Below are positions 38,680 through 55,412 of a DNA stretch of 64,000 nucleotides, piece by piece (position 1 is the first letter of the stretch; the number at the start of each line of letters is the position of its first letter). The position numbers were made by a program, and so were the translations under genes. Source of the stretch: an uncultured Geminicoccaceae bacterium (GTDB lineage: Bacteria > Pseudomonadota > Alphaproteobacteria > Geminicoccales > Geminicoccaceae); the NCBI GenBank assembly GCA_964402505.1, contig CAYOCP010000016.1:27853-91852 (forward strand), in the 5' to 3' direction. The notes under the pieces are model-generated. The model ran no database searches. It was not told the DNA's origin and saw only the letters and a list, made by a program, of their open reading frames with translations.

Positions 38680-38708
38680 ACGGCGGGACCATGTGGTATA
38701 ATCAGCAG
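38676..38708 (+). promoter_or_regulatory. Putative sigma70 promoter with extended -10, copy 1 of a shared 15-mer
   Basis: TTGAAC (38676-38681), a 15-nt spacer, then TGGTATAAT. The 15-mer TGGTATAATCAGCAG (38694-38708) recurs identically at 44740-44754. Lies 55 nt upstream of the SBP gene. Confidence 0.5.
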
Positions 38709-38762: not shown

Positions 38763-39776
38763 ATGTCCAAGACGAACCTCAATTCGACCCGCCGCACGTT
38801 CACCATAGGCGCTCTGCTCGCCGCCGGCACCGCCGGCCTGCCGGTCCTGGTCAAGGCGGAAGGCGACAAGACGGTGGCGCTCCTCTTCGACAGCCTCGTC
38901 TCGCCCTTCTGGGTGTCCGGCATCGAGATCATGCGCGAGGAGGCCGCCAAGCGCGGCTGGCAGACCCTGGAGGCCATCTCGGACTTCGACGACAACCGTC
39001 AGTTCGAGCAGGTCCGCGCGATGATCGAGCGCAAGGTCGACGGCATCCTGATCATCCAGACCGACGCCAACGCGGTGATCCCGGCCATCCGCGCCGCCAA
39101 TGAGGCCGGCATCCCCATGGTCCACTTCAACCGCCCCCCGGCCGAGAGCGACGCCTACTCGGTCGCGGTCCAGGCCGACAACCGCGCCATCATGGCCGAA
39201 ACGGTCCAGTTCCTGGTCGACCAGGCCCAGGCCAAGGGCGGGACCTACAAGGCCTGCATCCTGATCGGCGATCTCGGCGACGTGAACGCCATCCAGCGCC
39301 GCGACGGCTTCTTCGACGTTGTCGACCAGCATCCCGACCTCATCGAGGTGGTGGCGCGTGTCGCGACCGAATGGAACGCCGACAAGGCCTTCGCCGGCCT
39401 CACCAACGCGCTGCAAGCCAATCCGGACATCAACTTCCTCGTCACCTCGTCCGACTTCATGTTTCCGCAGATCGAGCAGGCGCTGAAGATCGCCGGCAAG
39501 TGGCACAAGCGCGATGAGGAGGGCCACGTCCTCTTCGGCGGCTTCGACGGCGATGCCGGCGCCTACCAGCTCCTGGTCGACGGCTACCTCGACGCCGACG
39601 GTGTGCAGAACCTGTTCCTCGAGGTCGACATGGCATTCGATGCCTTCGAGGAGATGTGGGCCGGCAACAAGCCCGACAAGCTGCTGCTCGACCCCGGCTT
39701 CGTCATCACCGCCGACAATCTCGAGGAGGTGCGCGACCAGATGTGGGGCTACATCGTCTGGAAGCAGAAGCAGTAG
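38763..39776 (+). CDS. Sugar ABC transporter substrate-binding protein (RbsB / periplasmic-binding type 1)
   Basis: 337 aa with a twin-arginine-like signal (STRRTFTIGALLAAGTAG) and a PBP1 fold pattern (VALLFDSLVSPFWV..., DGILIIQTD...). GGGAGG RBS. Confidence 0.88.
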   Translation: MSKTNLNSTRRTFTIGALLAAGTAGLPVLVKAEGDKTVALLFDSLVSPFWVSGIEIMREEAAKRGWQTLEAISDFDDNRQFEQVRAMIERKVDGILIIQTDANAVIPAIRAANEAGIPMVHFNRPPAESDAYSVAVQADNRAIMAETVQFLVDQAQAKGGTYKACILIGDLGDVNAIQRRDGFFDVVDQHPDLIEVVARVATEWNADKAFAGLTNALQANPDINFLVTSSDFMFPQIEQALKIAGKWHKRDEEGHVLFGGFDGDAGAYQLLVDGYLDADGVQNLFLEVDMAFDAFEEMWAGNKPDKLLLDPGFVITADNLEEVRDQMWGYIVWKQKQ

Positions 39777-39882: not shown

Positions 39883-40932
39883 ATGGCGCTGAAGACGGCT
39901 GCCACACCCGCCGCCGCGGTGGCCGGGGGCCGCGGTGGTGCTCGCGCGCGCGACTGGCTCGAGCGGGTAGTGCTCTCCGAATATCTCGTCTTCTACCTGA
40001 CCATCGCCTACTTCCTCGCGGTCTGGCCGATCGTGCCGGAGATCGCGACCTGGAGCTCGGCCTACAACATGCTGACCGACATGCTGCCCCTCTTCGTGGT
40101 GGCGATCGGTCAGACCTTCGTCCTCATCGTCGCCGGCATCGATCTCTCTGTGACCAGCATCATCGCCATGGCGAGCGTCATCGGCGCCTCGGTCATGACG
40201 GCCGATGGCGGCTATCTCGGCGGCAGCTTCCTCGCGGTGCCGGCGGGGATAGCGGCCTTTCTCCTGATCGGCGGGCTCGTCGGCTGGTTCAACGGCTTCT
40301 GCTGCACCCGTCTCGGCATGCCGCCGATCATCGTCACCCTGACCGGGCTCATGTTCCTGAGCGGTGCCGCCATCTGGTACACGACCGGCCACAGCGCCAC
40401 GAGCAGCATCGCCGGCCTGCCCAGAAGCTTCGTGCTGATCGGCCAGGGCAGCGTCTACGGCCTGCCGAACGCGCTCTGGGTGGCGCTCGTGGCCGGCATC
40501 GGCGCCCACCTCCTCCTCGGCCATACCGTCTTCGGCCGCTGGCTCTACGCCATCGGCATCAATCGCAACGCCGCCGAGATTTCCGGCGTGCCGGTGGAGA
40601 AGGCCGTCCTTTGGACCTTCGTCATCTCCGGCGTCTGCGCCTCGATTGCCTCGATCCTCTACACCGGCCGGCTCGAGACCGGCACGCCGGTGCTAGGCCA
40701 GCGCATCCTGCTCGACATCATCGCGGCCGTGGTGATCGGCGGCACCAGCCTCGCCGGCGGCAAGGGCAAAATCGTCTGGACGCTGGGCGGCGTGCTCTTC
40801 CTCGTGGTCATCGACAGCAGCCTCAAGCTGCTCGGCATGTCGCTGTTCGTCGTCTTCGCGGTCAAGGGCGGGGTGATCCTCTTCGCTGCGATCATCGACG
40901 CCATGCGCCAGCGCATCATGTTGCGGAGCTGA
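39883..40932 (+). CDS. Sugar ABC transporter permease (RbsC/AraH family)
   Basis: 349 aa, multi-TM, GIDLSVTSIIAMASV and IGGTSLAGGKGK motifs. ATG 39883 follows AGGAAG. Confidence 0.88.
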   Translation: MALKTAATPAAAVAGGRGGARARDWLERVVLSEYLVFYLTIAYFLAVWPIVPEIATWSSAYNMLTDMLPLFVVAIGQTFVLIVAGIDLSVTSIIAMASVIGASVMTADGGYLGGSFLAVPAGIAAFLLIGGLVGWFNGFCCTRLGMPPIIVTLTGLMFLSGAAIWYTTGHSATSSIAGLPRSFVLIGQGSVYGLPNALWVALVAGIGAHLLLGHTVFGRWLYAIGINRNAAEISGVPVEKAVLWTFVISGVCASIASILYTGRLETGTPVLGQRILLDIIAAVVIGGTSLAGGKGKIVWTLGGVLFLVVIDSSLKLLGMSLFVVFAVKGGVILFAAIIDAMRQRIMLRS

Positions 40933-40935: not shown

Positions 40936-42459
40936 ATGGCGGAGGAGATCCTGCGCCTCGACGGCCTCTCGAAGAGCTTCTTTGGCGTCGAGGTGCTGCA
41001 TGCCGTGAGCCTCGCGCTGCATCGGGGCGAGATCCTCGGCCTCGTCGGCGAGAACGGCTCGGGCAAGTCGACGACCATGAACATCCTCGGTGGCATCCAC
41101 CAGGCGGATGCCGGCAGCATCACCCTCGACGGCCGATCCTACCGACCAACCGGGCCACGCGACGCCCAGGAGGCGGGTCTCGCCTTCATCCACCAGGAGC
41201 TCAACCTCTTCGAGAACCTTTCGATCGAGGAGAACATCTTCATCAGCGGCTTCCCGAGACGGCTCGGGCGGCTGCCGCTGATCGACCGGGGCCGCATCGG
41301 CCAGCGGACCCGTGAACTGCTAGACATGGTCGACATCCCCTACCCGCCGACGATGCCGGTCGCCAAGCTCAGCCAGGGCGAGCGGCAACTGGTCGAGATC
41401 GCCAAGGCACTGAGCCAGGACGCCCGCATCATCCTTCTCGACGAGCCGACCACCTCCCTGACCCGGCGCGAGACCGAGAAGCTCTTCACCATCATGGAGC
41501 GGTTGCGGGCACAGGGCATCGCCCTCATCTACATCAGCCACATCCTGGGCGACGTGCTGCGCATCTGCGATACGATCCGGGTGCTGCGCGACGGCCATCT
41601 GGTCGGCGGCGGGACGCGCGACGAGATGAGCATCGACACGCTGATCTCGCTCATGGTCGGCCGCAAGATCGAGAACCTCTTCCCGACGCGGGACACGGTG
41701 CCGACCACGACCCCGGCGCTCGAGGTCGCGGGCATCACCCAGCCGGGCGTGGTCAAGGACGTCAGCTTCACCCTGCACACCGGCGAGGTGCTCGGTCTCG
41801 CCGGGCTGATGGGTGCCGGTCGGTCCGAGCTCGCCCGCATCCTCTTCGGTCTCGATCCCTTCGAGCGCGGCAGCATCCGCATCGACGGCGCCCCATTGGT
41901 CGAAGCCTCGCCCGAGGCCTGCATGCGACTCGGCATGGCGTTCCTCACCGAGGACCGGCGCGGCGAGGGCCTGATGATGGAAGCACCGATCACCGACAAC
42001 ATCGCGCTGCCCTCGCTCGGCGCCTATGCCGGCAACGTCGCGGGCTGGATCGCCCGGGGCCGCCTCGAGGAGGACGTCGCCGAGGTCAGCCGCCGGGTCC
42101 GGATCAACACCACCGACTACGGGCGAATGCTGGTCAAGAACCTTTCCGGCGGCAACCAGCAGAAGGTCGTGATCGGCAAGTGGCTCCTGCGCCAGCCCAG
42201 GGTCTTCATCCTCGACGAGCCGACCCGGGGCATCGATGTCGGCGCCAAGCTCGAGGTCTATAAGATCGTCAACCAGCTCGTCGCCGAAGGCAGCGCCGTC
42301 CTTTTCATCTCCTCCGAGATGGAGGAGCTGATCGGCATGTGCGACCGGATCCTGGTCATGAACCACGGCGAGATCACCGGCATCCACGAGCGCGGCGCGT
42401 TCGACAGCGAGCGCATTCTCGAGACCGCCATGCGCAAGAGCCTGGTCGAGGCTTCATGA
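40936..42459 (+). CDS. Sugar ABC transporter ATP-binding protein (duplicated ABC domains)
   Basis: 507 aa: Walker A GENGSGKST, signatures LSQGERQ and LSGGNQQK, Walker B ILLDEPT / FILDEPT. Confidence 0.92.
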   Translation: MAEEILRLDGLSKSFFGVEVLHAVSLALHRGEILGLVGENGSGKSTTMNILGGIHQADAGSITLDGRSYRPTGPRDAQEAGLAFIHQELNLFENLSIEENIFISGFPRRLGRLPLIDRGRIGQRTRELLDMVDIPYPPTMPVAKLSQGERQLVEIAKALSQDARIILLDEPTTSLTRRETEKLFTIMERLRAQGIALIYISHILGDVLRICDTIRVLRDGHLVGGGTRDEMSIDTLISLMVGRKIENLFPTRDTVPTTTPALEVAGITQPGVVKDVSFTLHTGEVLGLAGLMGAGRSELARILFGLDPFERGSIRIDGAPLVEASPEACMRLGMAFLTEDRRGEGLMMEAPITDNIALPSLGAYAGNVAGWIARGRLEEDVAEVSRRVRINTTDYGRMLVKNLSGGNQQKVVIGKWLLRQPRVFILDEPTRGIDVGAKLEVYKIVNQLVAEGSAVLFISSEMEELIGMCDRILVMNHGEITGIHERGAFDSERILETAMRKSLVEAS

Positions 42460-43445
42460 AGACGGGCGCGGCCGGCCGCCGCCTTGCGCTGCTGCTCCTG
42501 CGGAACGCACCGCTGGTCGCCTTCGTCATGGTCCTCGTGGTCTTTGCCGGCCTCTCCGACCGCTTCCTCACGCTCGCCAACTTCACCAACATCGTCACCC
42601 AGTCGTCGCACGTCGCGATCATGGCGATCGGCATGACCTTCGTCCTGCTCACCGCCGGGATCGATCTCTCGGTGGGTGCGGTCATGTATGTCGGCGTCGC
42701 CATCCTCGCCCTCTATCTGGGCGATTTGCCGGTGATGGTCTCCTTTCCGCTGATCGCCGTGCTCGGGCTGGCACTCGGCGCCGTCAACGGCTTCTTCGTC
42801 GTCCAGCTGCGCGGGCTGCATCCCTTCATCATCACCCTGGCGACGCTCTTCATCCTGCGCGGCGCTGCACTCTACCTGACCGACACCCGCATGGTCTTCG
42901 CCGAGGAGCCGATCATGAGCCTCGGCCGGACCAGCTATCTGGGCGTGCCCTGGGCCATCTGGATGTTCGCGCTGGTCTTTCTCGTCGCCTGGGTGATCCT
43001 GCGCGAGACCCCCTTCGGCCGCCAGATCTACGCCGTGGGTCAGGATCCGGTCGCGGCCGGCAAGGCAGGAATCAACGTGCCGCTCGTGCTCTTCGCCGTC
43101 TATTGCATTTGCGGTCTCTGCGCCGCATTGGGCGGCCTCGTATCGATCGCCCAGGTCGCGGCCGCCTCCTCGACCTTCGGCTTCCAGAAGGAGTTTCCCG
43201 TGATCGCCGCCGCCGTGCTCGGCGGAACGAGCCTCTTCGGCGGTCGCGGCGGGGTCGTCGGCACCGTCTTCGGCGCCATCCTCATCCAGACGGTCGAGAA
43301 CGGCCTCGTGATGACCAACGCCAACCCCTATGTCTACCCCCTGGTGACCGCCGCCATCATCTTCCTTGCCGTCTTCGTCGACAGCCAGCGCACCCGCATC
43401 CTCGACGCCATGGGCCGCCGCAAGATCCGCGTCGAGGAGACCTGA
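42456..43445 (+). CDS. Sugar ABC transporter permease (second RbsC-type subunit)
   Basis: 329 aa, GIDLSVGAVMYV and LGGTSLFGGRGG motifs. ATGA overlap with the ATPase stop. Confidence 0.88.
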   Translation: MKTGAAGRRLALLLLRNAPLVAFVMVLVVFAGLSDRFLTLANFTNIVTQSSHVAIMAIGMTFVLLTAGIDLSVGAVMYVGVAILALYLGDLPVMVSFPLIAVLGLALGAVNGFFVVQLRGLHPFIITLATLFILRGAALYLTDTRMVFAEEPIMSLGRTSYLGVPWAIWMFALVFLVAWVILRETPFGRQIYAVGQDPVAAGKAGINVPLVLFAVYCICGLCAALGGLVSIAQVAAASSTFGFQKEFPVIAAAVLGGTSLFGGRGGVVGTVFGAILIQTVENGLVMTNANPYVYPLVTAAIIFLAVFVDSQRTRILDAMGRRKIRVEET

Positions 43446-43459
43446 CCGCCGCCATCGGG

Positions 43460-44720: not shown

Positions 44721-44754
44721 TTGCGTCGGCGCGTCACGCTGGTATAATCAGCAG
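44721..44754 (+). promoter_or_regulatory. Putative sigma70 promoter with extended -10, copy 2 of the shared 15-mer
   Basis: TTGCGT (44721-44726), a 16-nt spacer, then TGGTATAAT. The 15-mer TGGTATAATCAGCAG (44740-44754) is identical to 38694-38708, and the next four bases also match 3/4 (TCAA vs CCAA). Confidence 0.5.
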
Positions 44755-44786
44755 TCAATGGGGCCTGGAGGACCTCGGGAGGGAAG

Positions 44787-45806
44787 GTGCAGCATGAACC
44801 GGGCGATCCGCCGATGCTGAAGGGTGGGGTCATCGGCTGCGGGTTCTTCGCCGCCAACCATCTGGCCGCATGGCAGCTCCTCGACGGCGTCCAGATCGTC
44901 GCCGTCTGCGACCGCGACCCCGAAAAGGCCCGATGGAACGGTGCCGGAAGCTATTCCGATGCCGCCGCGATGCTGGAGGCCGAGGAGCTCGACTTCGTCG
45001 ACATCGTCACGACGGTCGGCTCGCACCGGCCGCTGGTCGAGCTGGCCGCGTCCCATGGCGTCGCGGCGATCTGCCAGAAGCCCTTCGCGGCGAGCCTCGA
45101 GGACGGTCGCGCCATGGTCGAGGCCTGCGAGCGGGCCGGCGTGCCGCTCATGGTGCACGAGAACTTCCGCTGGCAGTCGCCGCTCATGGCCGTCAAGGCC
45201 GTGCTGGATTCGGGCGAGATCGGCGAGCCGACCTACGCGCGCCTCAGCTTTCGCCACGCCCACGACATCTATGCCGACCAGCCCTATCTGAAGACCGAGC
45301 CCAGGCTCGCCATCATGGATCTCGGCATCCACCTGCTCGACCTCGCCCGCCATCTCCTCGGCGAGGTCAGGCGGCTGCACTGCCGGACCCAGCGGATCAA
45401 CCCGGAGGTCACGGGCGAGGACTGCGCCACCATCGTCCTCGATCACGCGGACGGTGCGGTCAGCCTCGTCGACTTCTCCTTCAGCACGAAGCTCGAGCCG
45501 GACCCCTTCCCCCAGACACTGGCGCGGATCGAGGGCACCCTGGGCACGGTCGAGCTCGGGCAGGGCTACCGGCTCAAGGTCTCGGGCGAAGGCTGGTCGC
45601 GCGAGAGCAGCGTCGAGCCCGAGCCGCCGGCCTTCGGGGCAAAGCCCTGGCATGTCATCCAGGAGAGCGTCTTGAACATCCAGCGCCACTGGCTCGAATG
45701 CCTGCGCACCGGTGCGGCACCCTCGACCTCGGGCGCCGACAATCTCGAGACCCTCGGGCTCGTCTTCAAGGCCTACGAATCGGCGGCGACCGGGAGGGCG
45801 CTTTGA
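44787..45806 (+). CDS. Gfo/Idh/MocA-family NAD(P) oxidoreductase, paralogue 1
   Basis: GVIGCGFFAANHLAAW Rossmann N-terminus, ICQKPFA, MVHENFRWQSP, DLGIHLLDLARHLLGEV. GTG 44787 (the GGGAGGG motif ends 3 nt before the GTG) or ATG 44814. Confidence 0.88.
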   Translation: MQHEPGDPPMLKGGVIGCGFFAANHLAAWQLLDGVQIVAVCDRDPEKARWNGAGSYSDAAAMLEAEELDFVDIVTTVGSHRPLVELAASHGVAAICQKPFAASLEDGRAMVEACERAGVPLMVHENFRWQSPLMAVKAVLDSGEIGEPTYARLSFRHAHDIYADQPYLKTEPRLAIMDLGIHLLDLARHLLGEVRRLHCRTQRINPEVTGEDCATIVLDHADGAVSLVDFSFSTKLEPDPFPQTLARIEGTLGTVELGQGYRLKVSGEGWSRESSVEPEPPAFGAKPWHVIQESVLNIQRHWLECLRTGAAPSTSGADNLETLGLVFKAYESAATGRAL

Positions 45807-46819
45807 GCGTGCTTCGGGGTGCGGTCATCGGCTGCGGCTTCTTCGCCCAGAACCACCTTAAGGCCTGGGGCGACGTCGAGGGCGCCGAGCTCGTGGCGGT
45901 TTGCGATCTCGATCCCGCCAGGGCCGAAGCCGCGGCGACGATCACCGGGGCGACGCCCTACACCGATGTCGAGGCCATGCTGGTGGCGGCGCAGCCGGAC
46001 TTCATCGACATCGTGACCACCATGGAGACGCACGAGGCGTTGGTCCTCGAGGCCGCGGCCGTCAAGGCCCATGTCATCTGCCAGAAGCCCTTCGCCACCG
46101 ACATCGACGCGGTCCGTCGCATCCTCGACACCGCCGAGGCCGCCGGCATCCGCCTCATGGTGCACGAGAACTTCCGCTTCCAAAGGCCGCTCGTCGAGCT
46201 GAAGCGGGCGATGGCGGAGATCGGCCAGCCCTTCTTCGCCCACATCGCCTGGCGCACCGGCTACGACGTGGTGGCGGGCCAGCCCTACCTCGCCGAGGTC
46301 GAGCGCTTCATCGTCCTCGATCTCGGCATCCACGTCCTCGATGTCGCCCGCTTTCTCCTCGGCGACGTCGAGGACCTCTACGCCCGCACGCAGCGGACGA
46401 TGCCGCGCGCGATTGGCGAATCGCAGGCGACGATGTCGCTCCGCCATCGCTCCGGCGCCGTCTCCGAGGTGGCCTGCACCTACACCAACCGCATCGACCC
46501 GGACCCCTTCCCCGAGACCCTGATCGAGGTCGAGGGCACCGCCGGAACGCTGCGTCTCGGACGCGATTTCCGGCTCGAGCTGCACCGACCGGGCCATGTC
46601 GAGGTGCGCGAGGTCCACCCGAGGCCGCCCGCCTGGGCCGATCCCCGATGGGCGCTGGTCCAGGAATCGGTGCTCAACACGCAGCAGCATTTCATCGACT
46701 GCCTGCGCTCGGGCGACGAGTTCGCCACCTCCGGCCGCGACAACCTCAAGACCTTCGCCCTGGTCGAGGCGGCCTATGCATCGGCCGAATCGGGCCAGCC
46801 CGTGGTGCCCGAGGAATGA
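45803..46819 (+). CDS. Gfo/Idh/MocA-family NAD(P) oxidoreductase, paralogue 2
   Basis: AVIGCGFFAQNHLKAW, ICQKPFA, MVHENFRFQRP, DLGIHVLDVARFLLGDV. The TTG 45803 start overlaps the upstream TGA by 2 nt (TTGA); GTG 45809 is the alternative. Confidence 0.88.
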   Translation: MSVLRGAVIGCGFFAQNHLKAWGDVEGAELVAVCDLDPARAEAAATITGATPYTDVEAMLVAAQPDFIDIVTTMETHEALVLEAAAVKAHVICQKPFATDIDAVRRILDTAEAAGIRLMVHENFRFQRPLVELKRAMAEIGQPFFAHIAWRTGYDVVAGQPYLAEVERFIVLDLGIHVLDVARFLLGDVEDLYARTQRTMPRAIGESQATMSLRHRSGAVSEVACTYTNRIDPDPFPETLIEVEGTAGTLRLGRDFRLELHRPGHVEVREVHPRPPAWADPRWALVQESVLNTQQHFIDCLRSGDEFATSGRDNLKTFALVEAAYASAESGQPVVPEE

Positions 46820-48063
46820 GCTCGCGCATCCACGCGCACTATCTGGTCGAGACGGCCGACGACCCGCGTCGGGCTGTCGAGGTGATGGCCGGCGAGCAGT
46901 CGTCCGGAACCTTCATAGCCCTCCCCGGCGAAACGCCCGAGCTCAAGGAGCGCTTCGGCGCGCGGATCGAGAAGCTGGATCTCCTCGAGGAGGTGGCCGA
47001 ACCGAGCCTGCCCGGCGCCCGATCCGGCCCCGTCCATCGCCGCTGCCGGGCCGAGCTCTCCTGGCCGCTCGACACTGTCGGCCCGTCGCTCCCCAACCTC
47101 GTCGCCACGGTCGCGGGCAATCTCTTCGAGCTGCAGCAGCTCTCGGGGCTGCGCCTGCTCGACATCGACCTGCCGCCGGCCTTCGGCGAGCGCTATCCGG
47201 GCCCCGCCTTCGGCATCGAAGGTACCCGGCGCCTCGCCGGCGTGGCGGAAGGTCCCCTCATCGGCACCATCATCAAGCCCTCGGTCGGCCTCTCGCCCGA
47301 GGCCACGGCGGAGATGGTCGAGACGTTGGCCCGGGGCGGCATCGACTTCGTCAAGGACGACGAGCTGCAGGCCGACGGCCCCGCCTGCCCGTTCGAGGCG
47401 CGGGCGCGGGCGGTCATGCGGGTCATCGACCGGCACGCCGAGCGGACCGGCAAGCGGGTCATGTTCGCCTTCAACCTGACCGGCGAGATCGACGAGATGC
47501 GCCGCCGCCACGACCTCGTCCTCGAGCTCGGCGGCACCTGCGTCATGGCGAGCCTGAACTCGGTCGGGCTCGCCGGCATGGTCGAGCTCGGGCGCCACAG
47601 CCGGCTGCCGATCCACGCCCACCGCAATGGCTGGGGCTACCTCTCGCGCCATCCGCTGCTGGGCTGGTCCTACCCCGCCTGGTCCAAGCTCTGGCGGCTG
47701 GCGGGCGCCGACCACATGCACGTCAATGGCATCCGCAACAAGTTCTGCGAGCCCGACGAGAGCGTGATCGCCTCGGCGCGGAGCCTCCTGACACCCTTGT
47801 GGGACAAGAACCCCTGCATCGCCATGCCGGTCTTCAGCTCGGGCCAGACCGCGGCCCAGGCGCACGACACCTTCGCGGCGATCGGCACGACCGACCTGAT
47901 CTTCGCCGCCGGTGGCGGCATCATGGGACATCCGGGCGGCATCGAGGCAGGTGTCGCGAGCCTGCGCCAGGCCTGGGAGGCGGCCGCCCTGGGCATCCCT
48001 CTCGCGACCGCCGCGGCCGAGCATGCGGAGCTGCGCATCGCCCTCGGGGCGCTCGGCCGGTGA
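46816..48063 (+). CDS. RuBisCO large-subunit-like protein (form IV RLP)
   Basis: 415 aa: GTIIKPSVGLS (cf. KPKLGLS), GIDFVKDDE (carbamyl-Lys/metal motif KDDE), PIHAHRNG (HxHR), HMHVNG...NKF, VFSSGQ, FAAGGGIMGHPGG (phosphate-binding GGG). ATGA overlap with the upstream gene. Confidence 0.9.
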   Translation: MSSRIHAHYLVETADDPRRAVEVMAGEQSSGTFIALPGETPELKERFGARIEKLDLLEEVAEPSLPGARSGPVHRRCRAELSWPLDTVGPSLPNLVATVAGNLFELQQLSGLRLLDIDLPPAFGERYPGPAFGIEGTRRLAGVAEGPLIGTIIKPSVGLSPEATAEMVETLARGGIDFVKDDELQADGPACPFEARARAVMRVIDRHAERTGKRVMFAFNLTGEIDEMRRRHDLVLELGGTCVMASLNSVGLAGMVELGRHSRLPIHAHRNGWGYLSRHPLLGWSYPAWSKLWRLAGADHMHVNGIRNKFCEPDESVIASARSLLTPLWDKNPCIAMPVFSSGQTAAQAHDTFAAIGTTDLIFAAGGGIMGHPGGIEAGVASLRQAWEAAALGIPLATAAAEHAELRIALGALGR

Positions 48064-49436
48064 GCCTGCCGCAAGGCTGCCTCGTCGCCTTCTACGGCGA
48101 CGACTTCACCGGCTCCTCGGCGGTCATGGAGGTCCTGACCTTCGCCGGTCTGCCGACCGTGCTCTTCACCGAGGCGCCGACAGAGGAGCGGCTCGCCGGC
48201 TTCGCCGGCCACCCTGGCATCGGCATCGCCGGCGTGGCGCGGGCGAGGTCGCCGGCCTGGATGGACGCCAATCTGCCCTCCACCTTCGCGGCCCTGAAGG
48301 GACTCGCCGCGCCCATCGCCCACTACAAGGTCTGCTCGACCTTCGATTCGAGCCCGTTTCTGGGCTCGATCGGCCGCGCCATCGACCTCGCGGCCCCCGT
48401 TCTCGGCGGCGTCTGGTACCCGCTTCTGGTCGCGGCGCCGGAGATCCAGCGCTACCAGCTCTTCGGCAATCTCTTCGCCGCCGTCGACGGTGTCGGCTAC
48501 CGGCTGGACCGCCATCCGACCATGGCGCGTCATCCGGCGACACCCATGGACGAGGCCGATGTCAGGCTGCATCTGGCGAAGCAGACCGCCCGGCCCGCGG
48601 GCCTCGTCGACTACCTGGCCCTCCTCCGCGACGGTGGACGGCAGGCGCTGGAGCGGGAGCTGGCGCGAGGTGCCGAGATCATGGCCTTCGACGCGCTCGA
48701 CGAGGCGAGCCTCGAGGCTGCGGGCCGCCTCATCTGGGAGGAGCGCGGCGAGCGCCTTCTCGCCATCGGCAGTCAAGGGGTCGAGTACGCGCTCGTGGCA
48801 CACTGGCGCAAAGCCGGCCTGCTCGGCCCGCCACCGCCGCGCCGCACCGCCGGCCGCCGGAGGATCGCCGTGGCGTCCGGAAGCTGCTCGCCGGTGACGG
48901 CACGGCAGATCGAATGGGCCGAGGCGAACGGCTTCGAGGCCATCCGCCTCGACGTCGCGCGGGCGGTCGACGAGGCAGCCTGGCGGGTGGCGCTCGACAT
49001 GGCGATCGCCGCGGCCGGCACCGCCTGCCGTGCCGGCCGCGAGCCTCTGGTCTTCACCGCCCGCGGCCCCGACGATCCGGCCATTCCCGCCCTGGCCGCC
49101 GCCATCGAGGCCAGCGGTGCCGATGCCGAAACGGTCAACACCCGCATCGGCCACGGGCTCGGCAGCGTGCTGCAGGCGCTCGTCGCCACGCACGATCTCG
49201 GCCGCGTCGCCATCGCTGGCGGCGACAGCTCGGGCCACGCCCTGGCCGGCCTCGGCGTCTACGCGCTCGAGGCCGAGATCGAGCTCGCCCCCGCCTGCGC
49301 GCTCAGCCGGGCCTTCAGCGACCACTCCCGCTTCCACGGCATCGAGATCGCCCTGAAGGGCGGGCAGATGGGACCCGTCGATTACTTCGGCCTGATCGCC
49401 AACGGTCGGCCATCCGCGAGGGAGACACGGACATGA
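48060..49436 (+). CDS. Four-carbon acid-sugar kinase family protein (DUF1537)
   Basis: 458 aa: N-terminal AFYGDDFTGSSAVMEVL (DDFTG motif), two-domain size and a C-terminal ...IAGGDSSG...LKGGQMG. GTGA overlap with the RLP stop. Confidence 0.85.
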   Translation: MSLPQGCLVAFYGDDFTGSSAVMEVLTFAGLPTVLFTEAPTEERLAGFAGHPGIGIAGVARARSPAWMDANLPSTFAALKGLAAPIAHYKVCSTFDSSPFLGSIGRAIDLAAPVLGGVWYPLLVAAPEIQRYQLFGNLFAAVDGVGYRLDRHPTMARHPATPMDEADVRLHLAKQTARPAGLVDYLALLRDGGRQALERELARGAEIMAFDALDEASLEAAGRLIWEERGERLLAIGSQGVEYALVAHWRKAGLLGPPPPRRTAGRRRIAVASGSCSPVTARQIEWAEANGFEAIRLDVARAVDEAAWRVALDMAIAAAGTACRAGREPLVFTARGPDDPAIPALAAAIEASGADAETVNTRIGHGLGSVLQALVATHDLGRVAIAGGDSSGHALAGLGVYALEAEIELAPACALSRAFSDHSRFHGIEIALKGGQMGPVDYFGLIANGRPSARETRT

Positions 49437-50281
49437 CGAGGATCGCGCTGCTCGGCGCCGGCGGCAAGATGGGGGTGCGGCTCGCCACCAACCTCGAGGG
49501 ATCGCCCTTCGAGGTCGCCCATGTCGAGGTCAGCGAGGCCGGCCGCAAGCGCCTCGAGGCGGCCATCGGTGCCGTCTGCGTCGACGAGAAGGAGGCGCTG
49601 GAGCGCGCGGACGTGGTCGTGATGGCCGTGCCCGACGCGCTCATCGGCAAGATCGCGCATACCTTCGTGGACCGGCTCGAGCCCAACACCGCCGTCATCA
49701 TGCTCGATGCCGCGGCGCCCCATGCCGGCGAGCTGCCCGAACGCGCCGACATCACCTATTTCGTCACCCATCCCTGCCATCCCTCGATCTTCCGCTACGA
49801 GCCGACGCTCGAGGCGCAGAAGGACTATTTCGGCGGCGTGGCGGCGCGGCAGGCGATCGTCTGCGCCCTGATGCAGGGACCGGAGGAGCACTACACGCTC
49901 TGCGAGGAGATCGCGAAGACCATCTTCAAGCCGGTCAGCCGCTCGCACCGCGTCACCGTCGAAGGCCTCGCCCTGCTCGAGCCCGGCCTCTCGGAGACCA
50001 TCGGCGCCACGCTGGTGACGGCACTGCGCGAGGCGACCGACGCCGTGGTCGCCAAGGGCGTGCCCAGGGACGCCGCCATGGACTTCATGCTCGGCCATAT
50101 CGGCATCGAGATGGGCATCCTCTTCGAGGATTTCCCGGGCCAGTTCTCGGACGGTGCGAAGCTGGCGATCGAGCAGGCGAAGCCGAAGCTCCTGAAGGAC
50201 GACTGGCTCGCCGTGCTCGAGCCCGACGCCATCATCGCCAGCGTGCGGGAAATCTGCAATCCGCCGAAGGCTCCGAGGTGA
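49433..50281 (+). CDS. NAD(P)-binding oxidoreductase, 6-phosphogluconate-dehydrogenase-C-like / prephenate-dehydrogenase-like fold
   Basis: 282 aa: Rossmann IALLGAGGKMGVRLA, ...VVVMAVPDALI..., helical C-terminal domain. ATGA overlap with the kinase stop. Confidence 0.7.
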   Translation: MTRIALLGAGGKMGVRLATNLEGSPFEVAHVEVSEAGRKRLEAAIGAVCVDEKEALERADVVVMAVPDALIGKIAHTFVDRLEPNTAVIMLDAAAPHAGELPERADITYFVTHPCHPSIFRYEPTLEAQKDYFGGVAARQAIVCALMQGPEEHYTLCEEIAKTIFKPVSRSHRVTVEGLALLEPGLSETIGATLVTALREATDAVVAKGVPRDAAMDFMLGHIGIEMGILFEDFPGQFSDGAKLAIEQAKPKLLKDDWLAVLEPDAIIASVREICNPPKAPR

Positions 50282-51078
50282 ACGCCGGCGTCGGCGAGCT
50301 GCTCGAAGGCCGCAAGCTCAGGCTCGGCCACTACGTGGGCGAGTTCACCACCCCCGGCATCGGCTACATCATGCGCGAGGCCGGGGCGGAGTTCGTCTTC
50401 CTCGACATGGAGCACAGCGGCAACTCCTTCGAGACGCTGCACCGCGTGCTCCGCTATTTCGAGGCGGCGGGCGTGCCGGCCTTCGTGCGGGTGCCGTCGG
50501 ACAGCTACGACCACATCGCCCGCGCCCTCGACTGCGGTGCCGAGGCCATCGTCATCCCCATGGTCGGATCGGCGGCCCAGGCGCGCGCCATCGTCGAGAA
50601 GATGAAGTACACGCCGAGAGGCAAGCGCGGCCTGGCGCTCGGCCTCGCCAACGACCGCTACAAGGTGGCACCCGTCGCCGAAGCGCTCGCCGCCGCCAAC
50701 GGCCGGACCCGGCTCGTCTGCCTGATCGAGACGGCCGAGGGTGTCGCCGAGGTCGAGGCCATCGCCGCGGTGGATGGTGTCGACGTGCTCTGGGTCGGTC
50801 ATCTCGACCTCACGGCGAGCATGGGCATCCCGGGTGAGTTCGACCACCCGGACTTCGAGAAGGCGCTGCGGAAGGTCCTCGAGGCCGGGCTCGGGCACGG
50901 GAGGGGCCTGGGGCGCATGGTCGGCGACAGCGCCGCCGGCGTGGCGCTCGCCCGCGAGGGCTGGAACCTCATCGCCTATAGCGGCGATGTCTGGCTCTTG
51001 CAGGCGGCCCTGCGCCAGGGCCTCGACGGCATTCGCTCGGGCTATGCGAGCGGCGCGAAAGATGCCACCAAGGACTGA
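50278..51078 (+). CDS. HpcH/HpaI-family aldolase (2-keto-3-deoxy-acid aldolase type)
   Basis: 266 aa: FVFLDMEHS, VRVPS, IVIPMV, PRGKRG, ETAEGVAEVEAIAAVDGVDVLWVGHLDL. GTGA overlap with the upstream gene. Confidence 0.85.
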   Translation: MNAGVGELLEGRKLRLGHYVGEFTTPGIGYIMREAGAEFVFLDMEHSGNSFETLHRVLRYFEAAGVPAFVRVPSDSYDHIARALDCGAEAIVIPMVGSAAQARAIVEKMKYTPRGKRGLALGLANDRYKVAPVAEALAAANGRTRLVCLIETAEGVAEVEAIAAVDGVDVLWVGHLDLTASMGIPGEFDHPDFEKALRKVLEAGLGHGRGLGRMVGDSAAGVALAREGWNLIAYSGDVWLLQAALRQGLDGIRSGYASGAKDATKD

Positions 51079-51118
51079 ACCGCAAGACCTGATGAGAAAG
51101 CCCGGGGAGGCTCTCGAG

Positions 51119-52168
51119 ATGGCGACCTTCGAAGTGGCGCTCAGCGGCGACTTCCGCCTGCCGGACGGCAGTGCTGCCTATCCCTCCTTCGATCTCGGCC
51201 CGCTTCGGAACCATCCCGGCGTGCGCCTGCGCTACGTCGATCCGATCGAAGGCGCCATGCCGGGCGAAGCGCTCGAGGACGTGGATGCGCTCATCCTCCT
51301 GGTCCCGCGGTTCAATGCCAAAAGCGTGCCGAAGAGCCGCCGGCTCGCCGTCGTGGCGCGCTTCGGCGTCGGCTTCGACAGCGTCGACGTGCCGCTCTGC
51401 ACGAGGAACGACATCGCCCTCGTCACCACGCCCGACGGCGTGCGCCGGCCGGTCGCCGTCGCCATCCTCACCTTCGTCCTGGCCCTCGCGGGCAGGCTCA
51501 TGGTCAAGGACCGGCTGGTCCGCCAGGGACCCGAGGGCTGGAGTCGGCGCAGCGCCCACATGGGCGTGGGCCTCGTCGGCCGCACCCTCGGCCAGCTCGG
51601 CATCGGCAATATCGGTGCGGAGGTCTTCCGCATCGCCCGGCCGCTCGACATGCGCTTCATCGCCTTCGACCCTTACGCCGACCCGACCGTCGCCGCCACG
51701 CTCGGCGTCGAGCTGGTCGATCTCGAGACGCTTTTTCGGGAGAGCGACTTCCTCTCGGTGAGCTGCCCCCTGAACGAGGAGACCCGGCACATCGTGAACG
51801 CGGAGCGCCTCGCCCTGATGAAGCCGTCGGCCTTCCTCATCAATACGTCACGCGGGCCCGTGATCGACCAGAAGGCGCTCTTCGAAGCACTGAAGGCGGA
51901 CCGGCTCGCCGGGGCCGGGCTCGACGTGTTCGAGCACGAGCCGACGCGGGCGGGCGAGCCGATCACGACGCTGGAGAACGTGATCCTGGCGCCGCACGCG
52001 CTCTGCTGGACGGACGAATGCTTCGCCGGCATCGGTGCCGCCGACGTGGCGGCGGTGCTCACGCTGATGCAGGGAGAGGTGCCGCGCGGCATCGTCAATC
52101 GCGAGATCACCGAACGCCCGGGCTGGCAGGCCAAGCTCGCGGCCCTGGGCAAGAGCTTCGCCGGCTGA
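51119..52168 (+). CDS. D-isomer-specific 2-hydroxyacid dehydrogenase
   Basis: 349 aa: NAD motif GQLGIGNIGAEVF, SVSCPLNEETRHIV, LINTSRGPVID, GLDVFEHEP, APHAL. ATG 51119 lies 8 nt after GGGGAGG. Confidence 0.88.
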   Translation: MATFEVALSGDFRLPDGSAAYPSFDLGPLRNHPGVRLRYVDPIEGAMPGEALEDVDALILLVPRFNAKSVPKSRRLAVVARFGVGFDSVDVPLCTRNDIALVTTPDGVRRPVAVAILTFVLALAGRLMVKDRLVRQGPEGWSRRSAHMGVGLVGRTLGQLGIGNIGAEVFRIARPLDMRFIAFDPYADPTVAATLGVELVDLETLFRESDFLSVSCPLNEETRHIVNAERLALMKPSAFLINTSRGPVIDQKALFEALKADRLAGAGLDVFEHEPTRAGEPITTLENVILAPHALCWTDECFAGIGAADVAAVLTLMQGEVPRGIVNREITERPGWQAKLAALGKSFAG

Positions 52169-52196: not shown

Positions 52197-53639
52197 ATGA
52201 TGAACCGCAGAACCACCTTCGCCACCATGGCGGGCGCCACGGCCCTCCTCCTGGGCCAGCCGGCGCTGGCCCAGTCGGCGGCCGAGCGTGCCGTCGAGGC
52301 GGCGAAGCCGTACGCCGGCACCGAGATCAGCATCGTCTGGGAGGCGGGGCTGCAGGCGCTCGATCCCCTGAACTTCTCGGGGCCGGAGTGGAAGGAGCTC
52401 ACCGGCATCGACGTCAAGGTCATCGAGGTGCCGACCGCCGAGATGTTCACCAAGATCCTGCAGGAGCACCGGGCCGGCACCGGCGCCTATGACGCGCTCA
52501 ACGTCATCCCGTCCTGGATGCCCGACCTCGCGCGCGCCGGCGCCCTCGAGCCGCTCGACGCCTATGTCGACGAGTACGGCTACCGGGACGAGCTGGAGAC
52601 CATCGCCCCGGTCTACCGCGACAACCAGATGAAGGTCGGCGACACCATCTACGGCCTGCCCGACGACGGCGACGTCTTCGTCCTCTACTACCGCACCGAC
52701 GTCCTGAACGATCCCGGGATCCAGGCCGCCTTCAAGGAGGCAAAGGGCTACGACCTGCCGGTGCCGCCCACCGACTGGCAGGAGTTCGACGACGTCGCCT
52801 GCTTCATCACCGACCACACCGGCGGCAAGCCCTACGGTGCCGGGCTCTTCCGCGACCCGCCCTACGCGCAGCAGATGTTCCAGGAGCGCTTCCGCACGGC
52901 CGGCGGCAAGTTCTTCGATCCCGAGACCATGCAGGCAACCGTCAACAGCGAGGCCGGTGTCAGCGTCTTCCAGAGCATGCTCGCGGAGAACAAGTGCATG
53001 CCGCCCGGCGTGGAGACCTGGGGCTTCGTCGAGAACCTCGCGGCCTTCCTCCAGGGCGACACGGCGATGACCATCTCCTGGCCCCCCTACGGCCGCTGGG
53101 CCGCCGGATACGGCCTCGAGCAGGAGGCCTTCTCGTGGGTCCCCAAGTCCGAGATCGCCGGCAAGGTCGGCTACGCCCTGACACCGGGCGGCCACCCGGA
53201 GCTCGCCTCCGGCTTCTCGCTCGCCGTCTCCAGCGATTCTCGGCACAAGGAGGCGGCCTACCTCTTCATCCAGTGGCTGAACTCCGAGGACATCAGCATC
53301 CAGCGGGTGCAGCTCCCCTACGCGCTGCGCGACCCCTTCCGCGAGAGCCACTTCACCAGCGAAGAGTACCGCTCGCGCTGGCCCGAGGCGCCGCAATATC
53401 TGGACACCCTGCAGGCGGCGGCCCGAAGCGGCATCCTCGACCTCTCGATCCTGCAGACCGACCGCTACGAGGAGGCGCTCCGGCAGGGCATCTCCAGGCT
53501 CTGGGCCGGCGACGACCCCAAGGCCATCCTCGACGACGTGGCCGCCCAGTGGGACGCGATCACCGAGCGGGTCGGCGTCGACGCCCAGCGCGCGGCCTAC
53601 GAGGACTGGGCATCCAAGCCCAACGCCTACCCGAACTGA
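52197..53639 (+). CDS. ABC transporter substrate-binding protein (extracellular solute-binding family 1, carbohydrate type)
   Basis: 480 aa with signal peptide MMNRRTTFATMAGATALLLGQPALAQS and the typical SBP_bac_1 pattern (YDALNVIPSWMPDLA..., GLPDDGDVFVLYYR). Confidence 0.85.
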   Translation: MMNRRTTFATMAGATALLLGQPALAQSAAERAVEAAKPYAGTEISIVWEAGLQALDPLNFSGPEWKELTGIDVKVIEVPTAEMFTKILQEHRAGTGAYDALNVIPSWMPDLARAGALEPLDAYVDEYGYRDELETIAPVYRDNQMKVGDTIYGLPDDGDVFVLYYRTDVLNDPGIQAAFKEAKGYDLPVPPTDWQEFDDVACFITDHTGGKPYGAGLFRDPPYAQQMFQERFRTAGGKFFDPETMQATVNSEAGVSVFQSMLAENKCMPPGVETWGFVENLAAFLQGDTAMTISWPPYGRWAAGYGLEQEAFSWVPKSEIAGKVGYALTPGGHPELASGFSLAVSSDSRHKEAAYLFIQWLNSEDISIQRVQLPYALRDPFRESHFTSEEYRSRWPEAPQYLDTLQAAARSGILDLSILQTDRYEEALRQGISRLWAGDDPKAILDDVAAQWDAITERVGVDAQRAAYEDWASKPNAYPN

Positions 53640-53695: not shown

Positions 53696-54583
53696 ATGCA
53701 TCCAGCCTCAGGACAGGCCTTCGTCGGCCGCGGCTTCAAGTACGGCATGATCTGGCCGGCCGTGCTGGTGATCCTGCTGATCGGGCTCTTCCCGGTTCTC
53801 TACACGGGCATCGTCAGCTTCCAGGGCATCGACATGTTCGCCGAGGATACGGGCTTCAAGGGTGCGATCCACTACCGGCGGCTGATGACCGACCCGCGGT
53901 TCTGGGAGTCGGTGCTGCACACAGGCATCTTCCTCGCTTTGGCCCTGCCGCTCGAGCTGGTCCTGGGCCTGCTCCTGGCCCTCCTCCTGCTCGACCGGCT
54001 GCCGGGCAAGCAGATCTTCGTCGCCCTCCTGATCCTGCCGGTCGTCACCTCGCCGATCATCGCGGGCTCGACCTGGCGGCTCCTCCTCGACAACCGCTAC
54101 GGGCCCATCAACCAGATCCTCTCCTGGCTCTGGACGGAGCCCGTCACCATCCTCTGGACCGTCAACCCGGCGTTCGTGTACGCGGCCATCCTGCTCGCCG
54201 AAATCTGGCAATGGACGCCCTTCATGTTCCTCCTGCTGCTCGCCGGGCTCGCCAATGTCGACCCGTCGCTGGCCGAGGCGGCCGAGCTCGACGGGGCGGG
54301 CTTCTGGAAGACCTTCTGGTACGTCACCCTGCCGGTCGTCCGGCCGGTCATCCTCATCGCCTGCCTGATCCGCGCCCTCGATCTCTTCCGCCTCTTCGAC
54401 GTGGTATGGGCGCTCACCCGGGGCGGCCCCGGCACGCTCACCGAGACCGTCTCGATCTACGCCTACGTGCTCGCCTTCAAGCAGTTCGAGACGAGCTACG
54501 CCGCCGCCCTCGCGGTCGTCGTCATCGTCCTCCTCTCGCTCGTCGTCATGGCAGCGCTGCGCCGCGTCGAGTTCACCCGATGA
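53696..54583 (+). CDS. Carbohydrate ABC transporter permease (MalF/UgpA type)
   Basis: 295 aa, 6 TM helices, EAA loop AEAAELDGAGFWKTFWYVTLP. Confidence 0.87.
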   Translation: MHPASGQAFVGRGFKYGMIWPAVLVILLIGLFPVLYTGIVSFQGIDMFAEDTGFKGAIHYRRLMTDPRFWESVLHTGIFLALALPLELVLGLLLALLLLDRLPGKQIFVALLILPVVTSPIIAGSTWRLLLDNRYGPINQILSWLWTEPVTILWTVNPAFVYAAILLAEIWQWTPFMFLLLLAGLANVDPSLAEAAELDGAGFWKTFWYVTLPVVRPVILIACLIRALDLFRLFDVVWALTRGGPGTLTETVSIYAYVLAFKQFETSYAAALAVVVIVLLSLVVMAALRRVEFTR

Positions 54584-54590: not shown

Positions 54591-55412
54591 ATGAGGCAGT
54601 CGACCGGCACGCTCGTGATCCGCTACCTGCTCGTCGCGCTCGCCCTCCTCTTCTTCCTTTTCCCGATCTACTGGCTGGTCGCCATCTCGCTCAAGACGCC
54701 GGACGAGATCTTCGCGAGCCCGCCCATCTGGGTGCCGGGCCAGCTCCAGCTCCAGAACTACGCCGTGCTCTTCAAGGACGGCGATGTCTGGACCATCTGG
54801 AACAGCCTCGTCGTCGCCACGGTCAGCACCGTTGCCGCCATGCTGCTCGGCACCATGTGCGCCTACTCGATGGCGCGCTTCCGGACCGGCGGCGACCACT
54901 TCGCCATGTGGGTCATCTCCAACCGCATGATCCCGCCGATCGTCATCGTCTTTCCGGTCTTCCTCCTCTACGTGAAGCTCGGCTGGGTCGACACGCGGCT
55001 CGGGCTCACCATCCTCTACACCGCCTTCAACCTGCCCTACGTGATCTGGATGATGCGCGGCTACATCCAGGACGTGCCGATCGAGCTCGAGGAATCGGCG
55101 CTCGTCGACGGCTGCACGCGGCTGCAGACCTTCCGCCTGATCGTCCTGCCGGTGATCAAGGGCGGGCTCTTCGCCACCGCCGTCTTCACCTTCGTCTTCG
55201 CCTGGAACGAGTTCGTCTTCGCCCTCGTCCTCACCCGCAACGCCGCCACCACCTTCCCGGTCCAGGTCACCCACTATTTCGGCGGCCAGTCCAATTTCTG
55301 GGCCAAGATCGCCGCCATGAGCACGCTCGGCACGATCCCGATCTTCATCGCCGTCGCCATGCTGCAGAAATTCCTGGTGCGCGGCGTCTCCATGGGGGCC
55401 GTCAAGGGGTGA
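54591..55412 (+). CDS. Carbohydrate ABC transporter permease (MalG/UgpE type)
   Basis: 273 aa, EAA loop EESALVDGCTRLQTFRLIVLP. Confidence 0.87.
   Translation: MRQSTGTLVIRYLLVALALLFFLFPIYWLVAISLKTPDEIFASPPIWVPGQLQLQNYAVLFKDGDVWTIWNSLVVATVSTVAAMLLGTMCAYSMARFRTGGDHFAMWVISNRMIPPIVIVFPVFLLYVKLGWVDTRLGLTILYTAFNLPYVIWMMRGYIQDVPIELEESALVDGCTRLQTFRLIVLPVIKGGLFATAVFTFVFAWNEFVFALVLTRNAATTFPVQVTHYFGGQSNFWAKIAAMSTLGTIPIFIAVAMLQKFLVRGVSMGAVKG

Follow-up and report, generated by a model that had tools for sequence, protein, structure and literature searches.

We analyzed a 64,000-nt stretch of DNA (hereafter, the window; positions in it are counted from its first letter) from an uncultured Geminicoccaceae bacterium of the Alphaproteobacteria (NCBI GenBank assembly GCA_964402505.1, contig CAYOCP010000016.1, positions 27,853 to 91,852 of the forward strand). 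The window carries a locus encoding a form-IV RuBisCO-like protein (RLP), a DUF1537 kinase and two Gfo/Idh/MocA dehydrogenases, for which an initial sequence-only reading had proposed a role in D-apiose/D-apionate catabolism; homologues of all enzymes of the oxidative route were indeed identified. All five families of the apiose route (ApsD-like, ApnL, ApnO, OiaK and RLP) are present, each with its best match there, and the same enzyme set is found in the canonical pRL12 cluster of Rhizobium johnstonii 3841 and in a Xanthobacteraceae-like cluster (L086; related loci are denoted by such numbers). On balance, we favor an OiaT-type D-apiose/D-apionate locus with an appended, independently conserved module comprising an HpcH/HpaI-family aldolase, a D-isomer-specific 2-hydroxyacid dehydrogenase (2-HADH) and CUT1-type transport proteins.

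Layout of the locus

Seven plus-strand genes at 44787–52168 were confirmed with the list of open reading frames (ORFs) and Pfam, and all seven look intact, because the Pfam match covers nearly the whole model each time. The first six are chained by 4-nt start/stop overlaps, read directly in the sequence (TTGA 45803, ATGA 46816, GTGA 48060, ATGA 49433, GTGA 50278); spacers of 40 and 28 nt precede the ATG at 51119 and the gene at 52197, respectively. These overlaps and the 40-nt gap agree with the sequence-only reading, and Pfam agrees with its gene families (two paralogous Gfo proteins, RLP, DUF1537 kinase, HpcH/HpaI aldolase and 2-HADH). Its boundaries hold for these genes, but the system is larger. 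The transcription unit that starts with them (unit 2, 44787–55412) continues beyond 52168 with an SBP_bac_1 binding protein and two BPD_transp_1 permeases, and is followed by a convergent gene for an HWE histidine kinase. Moreover, unit 1 (35958–43445), which encodes an RbsB-type ABC importer in addition to a NanR-type regulator and an ApnL-family protein, is part of the same system (Table 1). The two units are separated by approximately 1.3 kb of lineage-specific small ORFs. Scans of the 43000–57500 region for sigma-70 promoters and terminators yielded nothing, and are uninformative at the G+C content of the window (~70%).

Table 1. Predicted genes and operators of the locus, with positions in the window
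Feature	Position	Strand	Evidence and remarks
NanR-subfamily GntR/FCD transcription regulator	35958..36731	+	Pfam GntR + FCD; NCBIfam NF003011, 298.6 bits
ApnL-family protein (D-apionate lactonase homologue, divergent), 639 aa	36760..38679	+	NCBIfam NF049900
TGGTATAATCAGCAG copy 1, predicted NanR-type operator	38694..38708	+	Exact repeat, conserved core
RbsB-type (CUT2) periplasmic sugar-binding protein	38763..39776	+	Weak NCBIfam RbsB/AlsB matches; alternative start ATG 38691
ABC permease (BPD_transp_2)	39883..40932	+	Pfam
Sugar ABC ATPase, two ABC_tran domains	40936..42459	+	Pfam
Second ABC permease (BPD_transp_2)	42456..43445	+	Pfam
TGGTATAATCAGCAG copy 2, predicted operator	44740..44754	+	Exact repeat
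ApsD-like Gfo/Idh/MocA dehydrogenase 1 (D-apiose 1-dehydrogenase homologue)	44787..45806	+	Pfam GFO_IDH_MocA; PDB 5uhw-5uib
ApsD-like Gfo/Idh/MocA dehydrogenase 2 (paralogue)	45803..46819	+	Pfam GFO_IDH_MocA; PDB 5uhw
Form-IV RuBisCO-like protein (RLP), OiaT-type clade	46816..48063	+	Pfam RuBisCO_large, 216 bits
DUF1537 acid-sugar kinase, OiaK-like	48060..49436	+	Pfam SBD_N + NBD_C
ApnO homologue (D-apionate oxidoisomerase)	49433..50281	+	Pfam PGDH_C, 203 bits; PDB 5t57
HpcH/HpaI-family class II aldolase (module 2)	50278..51078	+	Pfam HpcH_HpaI, 108 bits
D-isomer-specific 2-hydroxyacid dehydrogenase (2-HADH; module 2)	51119..52168	+	Pfam 2-Hacid_dh_C
CUT1-type solute-binding protein (SBP_bac_1; module 2)	52197..53639	+	Pfam
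CUT1 permease A (BPD_transp_1)	53696..54583	+	tblastn to module-2 permeases
CUT1 permease B (BPD_transp_1)	54591..55412	+	Pfam

Enzymes of the probable D-apiose route

By their closest structural relatives, both Gfo genes are ApsD-like (405.6 bits to PDB 5uhw-5uib for the first, 347.6 bits to 5uhw for the second). They share 48% identity with each other and 49–56% with the one Gfo gene present in canonical clusters (pRL12, L086), the first one reaching 53–56%; apart from the window, two copies were seen only in its closest relatives. The ApnL-family protein matches the D-apionate lactonase model NF049900 with 538.6 bits over model positions 5–593 of 595, below the cutoff of 750, compared to 851 bits for the canonical copy from L086 and 1061 bits for that from pRL12. 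A Pfam search yielded no match for this protein with a library lacking lactonase models, which was resolved by NCBIfam and by Pfam matches on its homologues: it is 36–45% identical to proteins with the Apionate_lact_N/M/C domains. A division of the ApnL family into a canonical subfamily and one associated with the aldolase module was considered and rejected, as pairwise identities of 37–53%, all against all, show none, though the NCBIfam scores differ.

The product of the PGDH_C gene matches PDB 5t57 with 331 bits, a structure identified in a classification preprint as D-apionate oxidoisomerase, apnO, and its identity to ApnO from pRL12 and L086 is 58–68%. The sequence-only reading had set this gene apart as an additional Rossmann oxidoreductase and placed ApnO among the Gfo/Idh/MocA enzymes, and both assignments have to be corrected. 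The gene belongs to the core, because the canonical OiaX cluster of pRL12 contains it too; a 2026 paper in the Journal of Biological Chemistry also treats ApnO-OiaK-OiaX as a D-apionate gene triad.

For the kinase, the best NCBIfam model is OiaK (NF042436; 536 bits, full length, cutoff 700), and OtnK scores 136 bits. Its identity to the L086 kinase (11275–12702) is 59%, and that to the kinase of the OiaX-type cluster (L002, 8532–9869) is 43–46%, with 43% in the comparison with pRL12. Since even the kinase of the canonical pRL12 cluster bears only a generic NCBI name, the NCBIfam cutoffs appear strict. DUF1537 kinases track their RLP partner by identity, though both kinds are thought to act on the same substrate. 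The best PDB matches of the CUT2 RbsB-type binding protein are 5ibq and 4ry0, at 80 bits.

The best NCBIfam model for the RLP is OiaX (NF042437), with 450.3 bits over the full length and a cutoff of 700. The MtnW models NF007095 and TIGR03332 score 175 and 135 bits against cutoffs of 409 and 514, and the form III RuBisCO model, 226 bits against 497. Clustering with MtnW (DK-MTP-1-P enolase of methionine salvage), a check suggested by the sequence-only reading, is thus not observed, and this function was ruled out by scores, residues and gene context. A CO2-fixing RuBisCO of forms I–III was likewise ruled out, as that reading had argued, by the score, by the replacement of K177 with Ser, and by the context, with no cbb, prk or RuBisCO small-subunit gene among the annotated (large) ORFs of the window.

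The RLP has its closest relatives in Geminicoccaceae metagenome-assembled genomes (86–91% identity), and RLPs encoded at 80 genome loci of Alpha- and Betaproteobacteria and Acidobacteriota are 64–91% identical to it. Identity is 70–73% to proteins from Ancylobacter and other Xanthobacteraceae, which form a clade apart from OiaX, and 43% to the NCBI-named OiaX. Several close relatives of the Xanthobacteraceae RLPs are named "3-oxoisoapionate-4-phosphate transcarboxylase/hydrolase" by the Joint Genome Institute (JGI), these OiaT names being automated, and have generic names at NCBI. RLP, kinase and ApnO occur together in 56 of the 80 related loci, often without other catabolic genes, which fits a route ending in central metabolites.

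The active-site motifs of the RLP (IKPS, DFVKDDE, HAHR and DHMHVNGIRNK) are the same as in the wider clade. In a numbering that we take to be that of spinach RuBisCO, based on these motifs, K175, K201-D203-E204, H294-R295 and K334 are kept both in the window RLP and in two NCBI-named OiaX sequences. K177 is replaced by Ser in the window RLP and by Ala in the one OiaX sequence aligned. At H325/H327 the window RLP has DHMH and nearly all of 91 aligned RLPs have DHxH, compared to DQFQ in both OiaX sequences. The retained H327 would be in keeping with hydrolysis of a RuBisCO-like kind. Taken together, the automated JGI names, clade membership and motifs make it likely that the RLP is of the OiaT type, that is, a 3-oxo-isoapionate-4-phosphate transcarboxylase/hydrolase.

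It is very doubtful that the RLP is an OiaX-like decarboxylase yielding L-erythrulose-1-phosphate. OiaX is the only named NCBIfam model among its best matches and is covered in full, but the score is under the cutoff, the identity is low, and DHMH stands in place of DQFQ. Moreover, the clade is labeled OiaT by JGI, most of its members have no downstream erythrulose phosphate enzyme in the neighborhood, and none for L-erythrulose phosphate was found among the annotated genes of the window. As for OiaC, which the sequence-only reading had listed as an RLP name, NCBIfam calls the RLP decarboxylase OiaX, and OiaC is, we assume, not an RLP.

Pairs of RLP and DUF1537 kinase genes are also present on Azospirillum and Cupriavidus plasmids (L001, L093, L094), with RLPs 51–69% identical to that of the window and DHxH kept. 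Their partners are TRAP transporters, a VOC protein, pyruvate kinase, and an SDR glucose 1-dehydrogenase with an alpha/beta hydrolase. The Azospirillum pairs have no annotated ApnO in their vicinity, and a PGDH_C gene is located approximately 5 kb downstream of the kinase gene in Cupriavidus. These pairs may act on other substrates.

The existence of RLP-kinase pairs in non-apiose contexts could be taken to mean that the whole locus, including the trio of RLP, kinase and ApnO, acts on a sugar other than D-apiose, in line with the different branched or acid sugar that the sequence-only reading had considered. The scores of ApnL, OiaK and RLP, all under the NCBIfam equivalog cutoffs, the divergence of the window ApnL (539 bits) compared to those of L086 and pRL12, the two ApsD paralogues, and the distance of the CUT2 binding protein from its nearest structure point the same way. 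However, all five apiose-pathway families co-occur here as in canonical clusters, the RLP active site is that of the wider clade, and the cutoffs are strict, as the generic name of the pRL12 kinase illustrates. We therefore regard a different sugar as improbable.

The aldolase module and its predicted regulation

The sequence-only reading had seen in the additional enzymes and the second importer a non-canonical tail that pointed to a variant route or to another substrate. Judging by its occurrence in other genomes, the tail (aldolase, 2-HADH, CUT1 binding protein and two permeases) is a separate, widely conserved module and not an extension of the RLP route. Its best annotated homologues are located on plasmids pCB82_1 of Bradyrhizobium sp. 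CB82 and pMESCI01 of Mesorhizobium ciceri (350567–360221), in the order NanR/FCD regulator, small ABM protein, aldolase, 2-HADH, binding protein, two permeases, UgpC/MalK ATPase, and a ~650-aa protein that is 40% identical to the ApnL-family protein of the window; no RLP, kinase or ApnO gene is found within 9 kb. The aldolases of these two modules are 50–55%, the 2-HADHs 62–65%, and the binding proteins 44–67% identical to those of the window, the ranges for stand-alone modules in general being 50–60, 62–66 and 44–67%, respectively.

The module was found without RLP, kinase and ApnO at L087, L088, L091, L092 and L098, sometimes with the ABM protein; among these stand-alone cases are a 4.2-Mb contig (L091), Microbaculum marinum (L098) and several metagenome-assembled genomes. 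Only the beginning of the module, followed by the contig end, is seen at L099, and L097 holds a decayed copy. The ApnL-family members of stand-alone modules score 607–627 bits on the ApnL model (cutoff 750). In CB82, M. ciceri and M. marinum, the stand-alone version keeps the same gene order and a NanR/FCD regulator, and additionally has an ApnL-family gene of its own, a MalK ATPase and, in many cases, the ABM protein. The copy in the window is reduced in comparison: a search of the window for the ABM protein, DUF2291, DhaK, a second ApnL-family gene and a MalK-type ATPase other than the CUT2 ATPase yielded none of them.

The aldolase scores far below the NCBIfam equivalog cutoffs (HpaI 124/369, GarL 108/407, RhmA 88/441 bits), with PDB matches of about 110 bits or less, and is predicted to have the HpcH/HpaI class II fold, its specificity not being assignable. 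The 2-HADH is below the cutoffs as well (glyoxylate reductase 226/455, PGDH 209/454, GhrB 158/492 bits), and the CUT1 binding protein has no informative PDB relative. An HpcH aldolase encoded beside the L086 cluster was tried as a relative and rejected, having no match to the window aldolase in a tblastn screen.

The ways in which the module and the trio are combined differ between genomes. In Bauldia sp. (L083), the RLP-kinase-ApnO trio is inserted between the ABM gene and the aldolase gene of such a module. L085 has a five-gene unit, RLP-kinase-ApnO-aldolase-2-HADH, without transporter or lactonase. In bacterium HR40 (L090 8090–9004), a 304-aa ORF matches both RuBisCO_large and PGDH_C, as if left behind by a deletion in which the kinase gene, most of the RLP gene and part of ApnO were lost; the aldolase/2-HADH/CUT1 module is still intact there, as are two ApnL-family genes. 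In a neighbor-joining tree, all RLPs followed by an aldolase form one clade, which indicates a single fusion event, in the lineage of the window. The Bauldia locus also encodes a three-subunit molybdenum hydroxylase (Fer2, MoCoBD, FAD_binding_5; L083 5006–8730) beside its ApnL-family gene, at the position occupied by Gfo genes in other clusters, which may be an alternative step of apiose or aldehyde oxidation.

The L085 unit and the monophyly of the fusion suggest coupling of the aldolase and the 2-HADH to the trio, and both enzymes could work downstream of the RLP. The 2-HADH, with glyoxylate reductase and phosphoglycerate dehydrogenase as its best NCBIfam/PDB matches, would then interconvert glycolate and glyoxylate or oxidize 3-phosphoglycerate, and the aldolase would condense glyoxylate with pyruvate; in a variant of this explanation, the pair clears 2-oxo-apionate leaking from ApnO. 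We see little likelihood in this, as the pair is found with no RLP nearby and is still there in HR40 after the loss of the trio, oxidation of glycolate with NAD is thermodynamically unfavorable, and no enzyme is present for the condensation product.

The regulator encoded in unit 1 scores above the cutoff of its NanR-subfamily model (260 bits) and is 40–50% identical to regulators of related clusters. An exact 15-mer, TGGTATAATCAGCAG, occurs twice in the window, with 0.26 matches expected even allowing up to three mismatches. Its copies are located 55 nt upstream of the CUT2 binding-protein gene and 33 nt upstream of the first Gfo gene; the 15-mer includes a perfect TATAAT and overlaps a -10-like box. 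At L003, L004, L005 and L052 the motif is in the same place, before the first Gfo gene. Allowing for one mismatch, the core of the motif, TGGTATAAT(C/G)A, is present in approximately 30 related loci including pRL12, mostly just upstream of RLP, Gfo, ApnO or regulator genes (sites at L002 7203, L086 9858, L098 8933, L099 8929 and L087 7897). About 45 matches are seen in ~1.7 Mb of loci, compared to about 3 expected by chance according to a rough composition-based estimate. These elements are probably the operator of the NanR-subfamily FCD regulator, and the two units are probably switched together by it, because the same TGGTATAATCAGCAG element precedes both.

Predicted operators of the TGGTATAAT type are also observed upstream of the aldolase or regulator gene of the module. 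At the stand-alone L098 and L099, TGGTATAAT(C/G)A is located approximately 70 nt upstream of the aldolase gene, the 11-mer being one mismatch from the operator of apionate clusters, and palindromic relatives are present in other stand-alone modules: TTGGTATAC-TAG-GTATACCAA at L087, CTGGTATAACAGGTATGCCA at L088 and TGGTATTACCA at L092. The shared motifs support, but do not prove, that the regulators are related and possibly respond to a related effector.

These regulatory data bear on a further explanation, a minor but real possibility, that the aldolase, 2-HADH and CUT1 genes are an unrelated module for another, probably linear, aldono-lactone or sugar acid, placed next to the trio by gene transfer and shared regulation, with a 2-oxo-aldonate cleaved to hydroxypyruvate and glycolaldehyde or glyceraldehyde. 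The module does stand alone in many genomes, its ApnL-family proteins are under the cutoff, a linear substrate would release no formaldehyde, and CUT1 importers usually carry neutral sugars or oligosaccharides. On the other hand, the start codon of the aldolase gene overlaps the stop codon of ApnO, the five-gene unit is kept at L085 without a transporter, the regulators are of the NanR type with the almost identical 11-mer at L098 and L099, and the sole lactonase-like protein of the module belongs to the ApnL family.

Outside the two units, the region at 43460–44691 contains three small ORFs (98 aa on the minus strand, 153 aa and hydrophobic, and ~133 aa) with no family matches and with counterparts only in the four closest relatives (L003, L004, L005, L052); codon-position G+C supports their coding status. 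Just upstream of the regulator gene, a gene for a bacterial eRF1-like protein (baeRF family 11/8, 191 bits; 34722–35984, minus strand) adjoins that of an FMN-dependent 2-hydroxyacid dehydrogenase/oxidase (447 bits; 33518–34834, minus strand). Glycolate oxidase is a member of the FMN_dh family, and this enzyme could conceivably be linked to the glycolate from an OiaT-type RLP. A gene of the GFA family (glutathione-dependent formaldehyde-activating enzyme; 31919–32317, minus strand) and a DDE transposase fragment (29012–29356, plus strand) are found a few kb upstream; together with a dip of G+C to 0.645–0.66 at 28–32 kb of the window, they may mark the edge of an acquired region. Past the histidine kinase gene, there is an unrelated minus-strand cluster (57991–63080) of SDR, GMC oxidoreductase, sulfatase and LacI regulator genes. 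The remaining genes of the window are chromosomal housekeeping ones: ntrYX, trkA, ispDF, those of the pdh complex, eno, pyrG, tpiA and trpE.

Proposed pathways and comparison with known systems

By homology with the described pathway, the core would operate as follows. The ApsD-like enzymes would oxidize D-apiose to D-apionolactone, the two paralogues, speculatively, serving two furanose forms; the ApnL-like protein would open the lactone to D-apionate, which ApnO would convert to 3-oxo-isoapionate. The kinase would then make 3-oxo-isoapionate 4-phosphate, from which the RLP would yield 3-phosphoglycerate and glycolate.

For the tail, our best guess is breakdown of D-apionate or a close D-2-hydroxy acid sugar with neither RLP nor kinase: the 2-HADH would make a 2-oxo acid, the class II aldolase would cleave it by a retro-aldol reaction, and the 2-HADH may also reduce the resulting hydroxypyruvate to glycerate. 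Such a link of the tail to apionate is suggested because the ApnL-family gene of the module scores 607–627 bits on the lactonase model and because the module has TGGTATAAT-type predicted operators. HpcH-family aldolases accept hydroxypyruvate as a nucleophile and formaldehyde as an electrophile (PMC7610986). In its most specific form, which we consider rather unlikely, the module (aldolase, 2-HADH, CUT1, ApnL-family lactonase and NanR) would be a fifth D-apionate route independent of RLP and kinase. The 2-HADH would convert D-apionate to 2-oxo-apionate, the aldolase would remove both hydroxymethyl arms by successive retro-aldol reactions, giving formaldehyde and hydroxypyruvate, and the same 2-HADH would reduce the latter to D-glycerate, so that the route would be redox neutral.

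Several observations weigh against the interpretation of the locus favored here. The relationship of the CUT2 binding protein to the apiose-binding structure is distant, and ApnL (539/750 bits), OiaK (536/700) and the RLP are all below the equivalog cutoffs. Homology searches and cluster look-ups aimed at the experimentally characterized OiaT of Xanthobacter autotrophicus brought up only the automated JGI names, on which the comparison within the RLP clade relies. TGGTA-type half-sites are common to FadR/NanR-type regulators generally. As regards the module, the five-gene unit at L085 hints at cooperation with the trio, over a redundant parallel route. Finally, with D-apionate as the substrate, the sole retro-aldol reaction open to 2-oxo-apionate (C3–C4) would release formaldehyde, and the module contains no formaldehyde-handling gene; the GFA-family gene upstream of the locus is probably unrelated to it.

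Carter and colleagues are said to have described, in Nat Chem Biol in 2018, four D-apiose pathways, proceeding via transketolase, OiaC, OiaX or OiaT. To our knowledge, none of the four published apiose pathways uses an HpcH aldolase or a 2-HADH; as far as could be checked, the sequence-only reading was right to place these two enzymes and the second importer outside the described pathways. The closest known system is the OiaT-type pathway (Carter et al., 2018), represented here by L086, which has the same five enzyme families. Its RLP, kinase and ApnO genes overlap and follow the same order, and a GntR/FCD regulator and an upstream predicted TGGTATAAT operator are present as well. Identities to the window are 70% for RLP, 59% for the kinase, 68% for ApnO and 52–56% for Gfo. 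The window differs from L086 in having two ApsD paralogues, a divergent ApnL (539 vs. 851 bits), the fused aldolase/2-HADH/CUT1 module, and a CUT2 ABC importer where L086 has a TRAP transporter.

The pRL12 cluster of R. johnstonii 3841, of the OiaX type according to NCBI, has the order NanR, OiaX, DUF1537 kinase, PGDH_C, RbsB-type importer, Gfo/Idh/MocA and a 620-aa hypothetical protein. It shares with the window NanR, RLP, the kinase, ApnO, the RbsB-type importer, Gfo, an ApnL-family protein and the operator core. It differs in the low identity of the RLP and of the kinase (43% each), in DQFQ instead of DHMH, in the presence of DUF2291 and DhaK/DhaL, and in the absence of the aldolase and 2-HADH.

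Two further systems are related more remotely. In the DUF1537 tetronate pathways (OtnK/OtnC; Zhang et al., 2016, PNAS), a 3-oxo acid sugar is likewise phosphorylated before C-C chemistry, but the window kinase scores 136 bits with OtnK and 536 with OiaK, and its partner is an RLP, not a class II aldolase-type decarboxylase. A pathway for D-hamamelose that uses an RLP oxygenase (Kim, Lim and Lee, 2018; as cited by PMC10176493 and PMC8914248), compared by description only, is similar in that an RLP participates in the catabolism of a branched-chain plant sugar, ending in 3-phosphoglycerate and a C2 acid; it differs in the substrate and accessory enzymes, and neither ApnO nor ApnL is mentioned in the descriptions of it that we consulted.

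The core is a further example of a pathway that is already known and curated, with models in NCBIfam and Pfam, and it adds a lineage to the OiaT-type route. Among plant cell-wall polysaccharides, rhamnogalacturonan-II and apiogalacturonan have D-apiose as a signature sugar. NCBI annotation leaves the whole RLP clade under a generic RuBisCO-family name.

The candidate novelty is in the module itself and in its fusion with the trio, of which no description was found in the searchable literature, nor any link of apiose with HpcH. The conserved aldolase/dehydrogenase/CUT1/ApnL-family module is a useful new lead, as it occurs in rhizobia that can be cultured (Mesorhizobium ciceri WSM1271 and Bradyrhizobium sp. 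CB82). It would define a new type of branched sugar acid breakdown or a new aldonate pathway without a dehydratase, and, if the fifth route is true, one operon would combine two mechanistically unrelated solutions to the branched-carbon problem.

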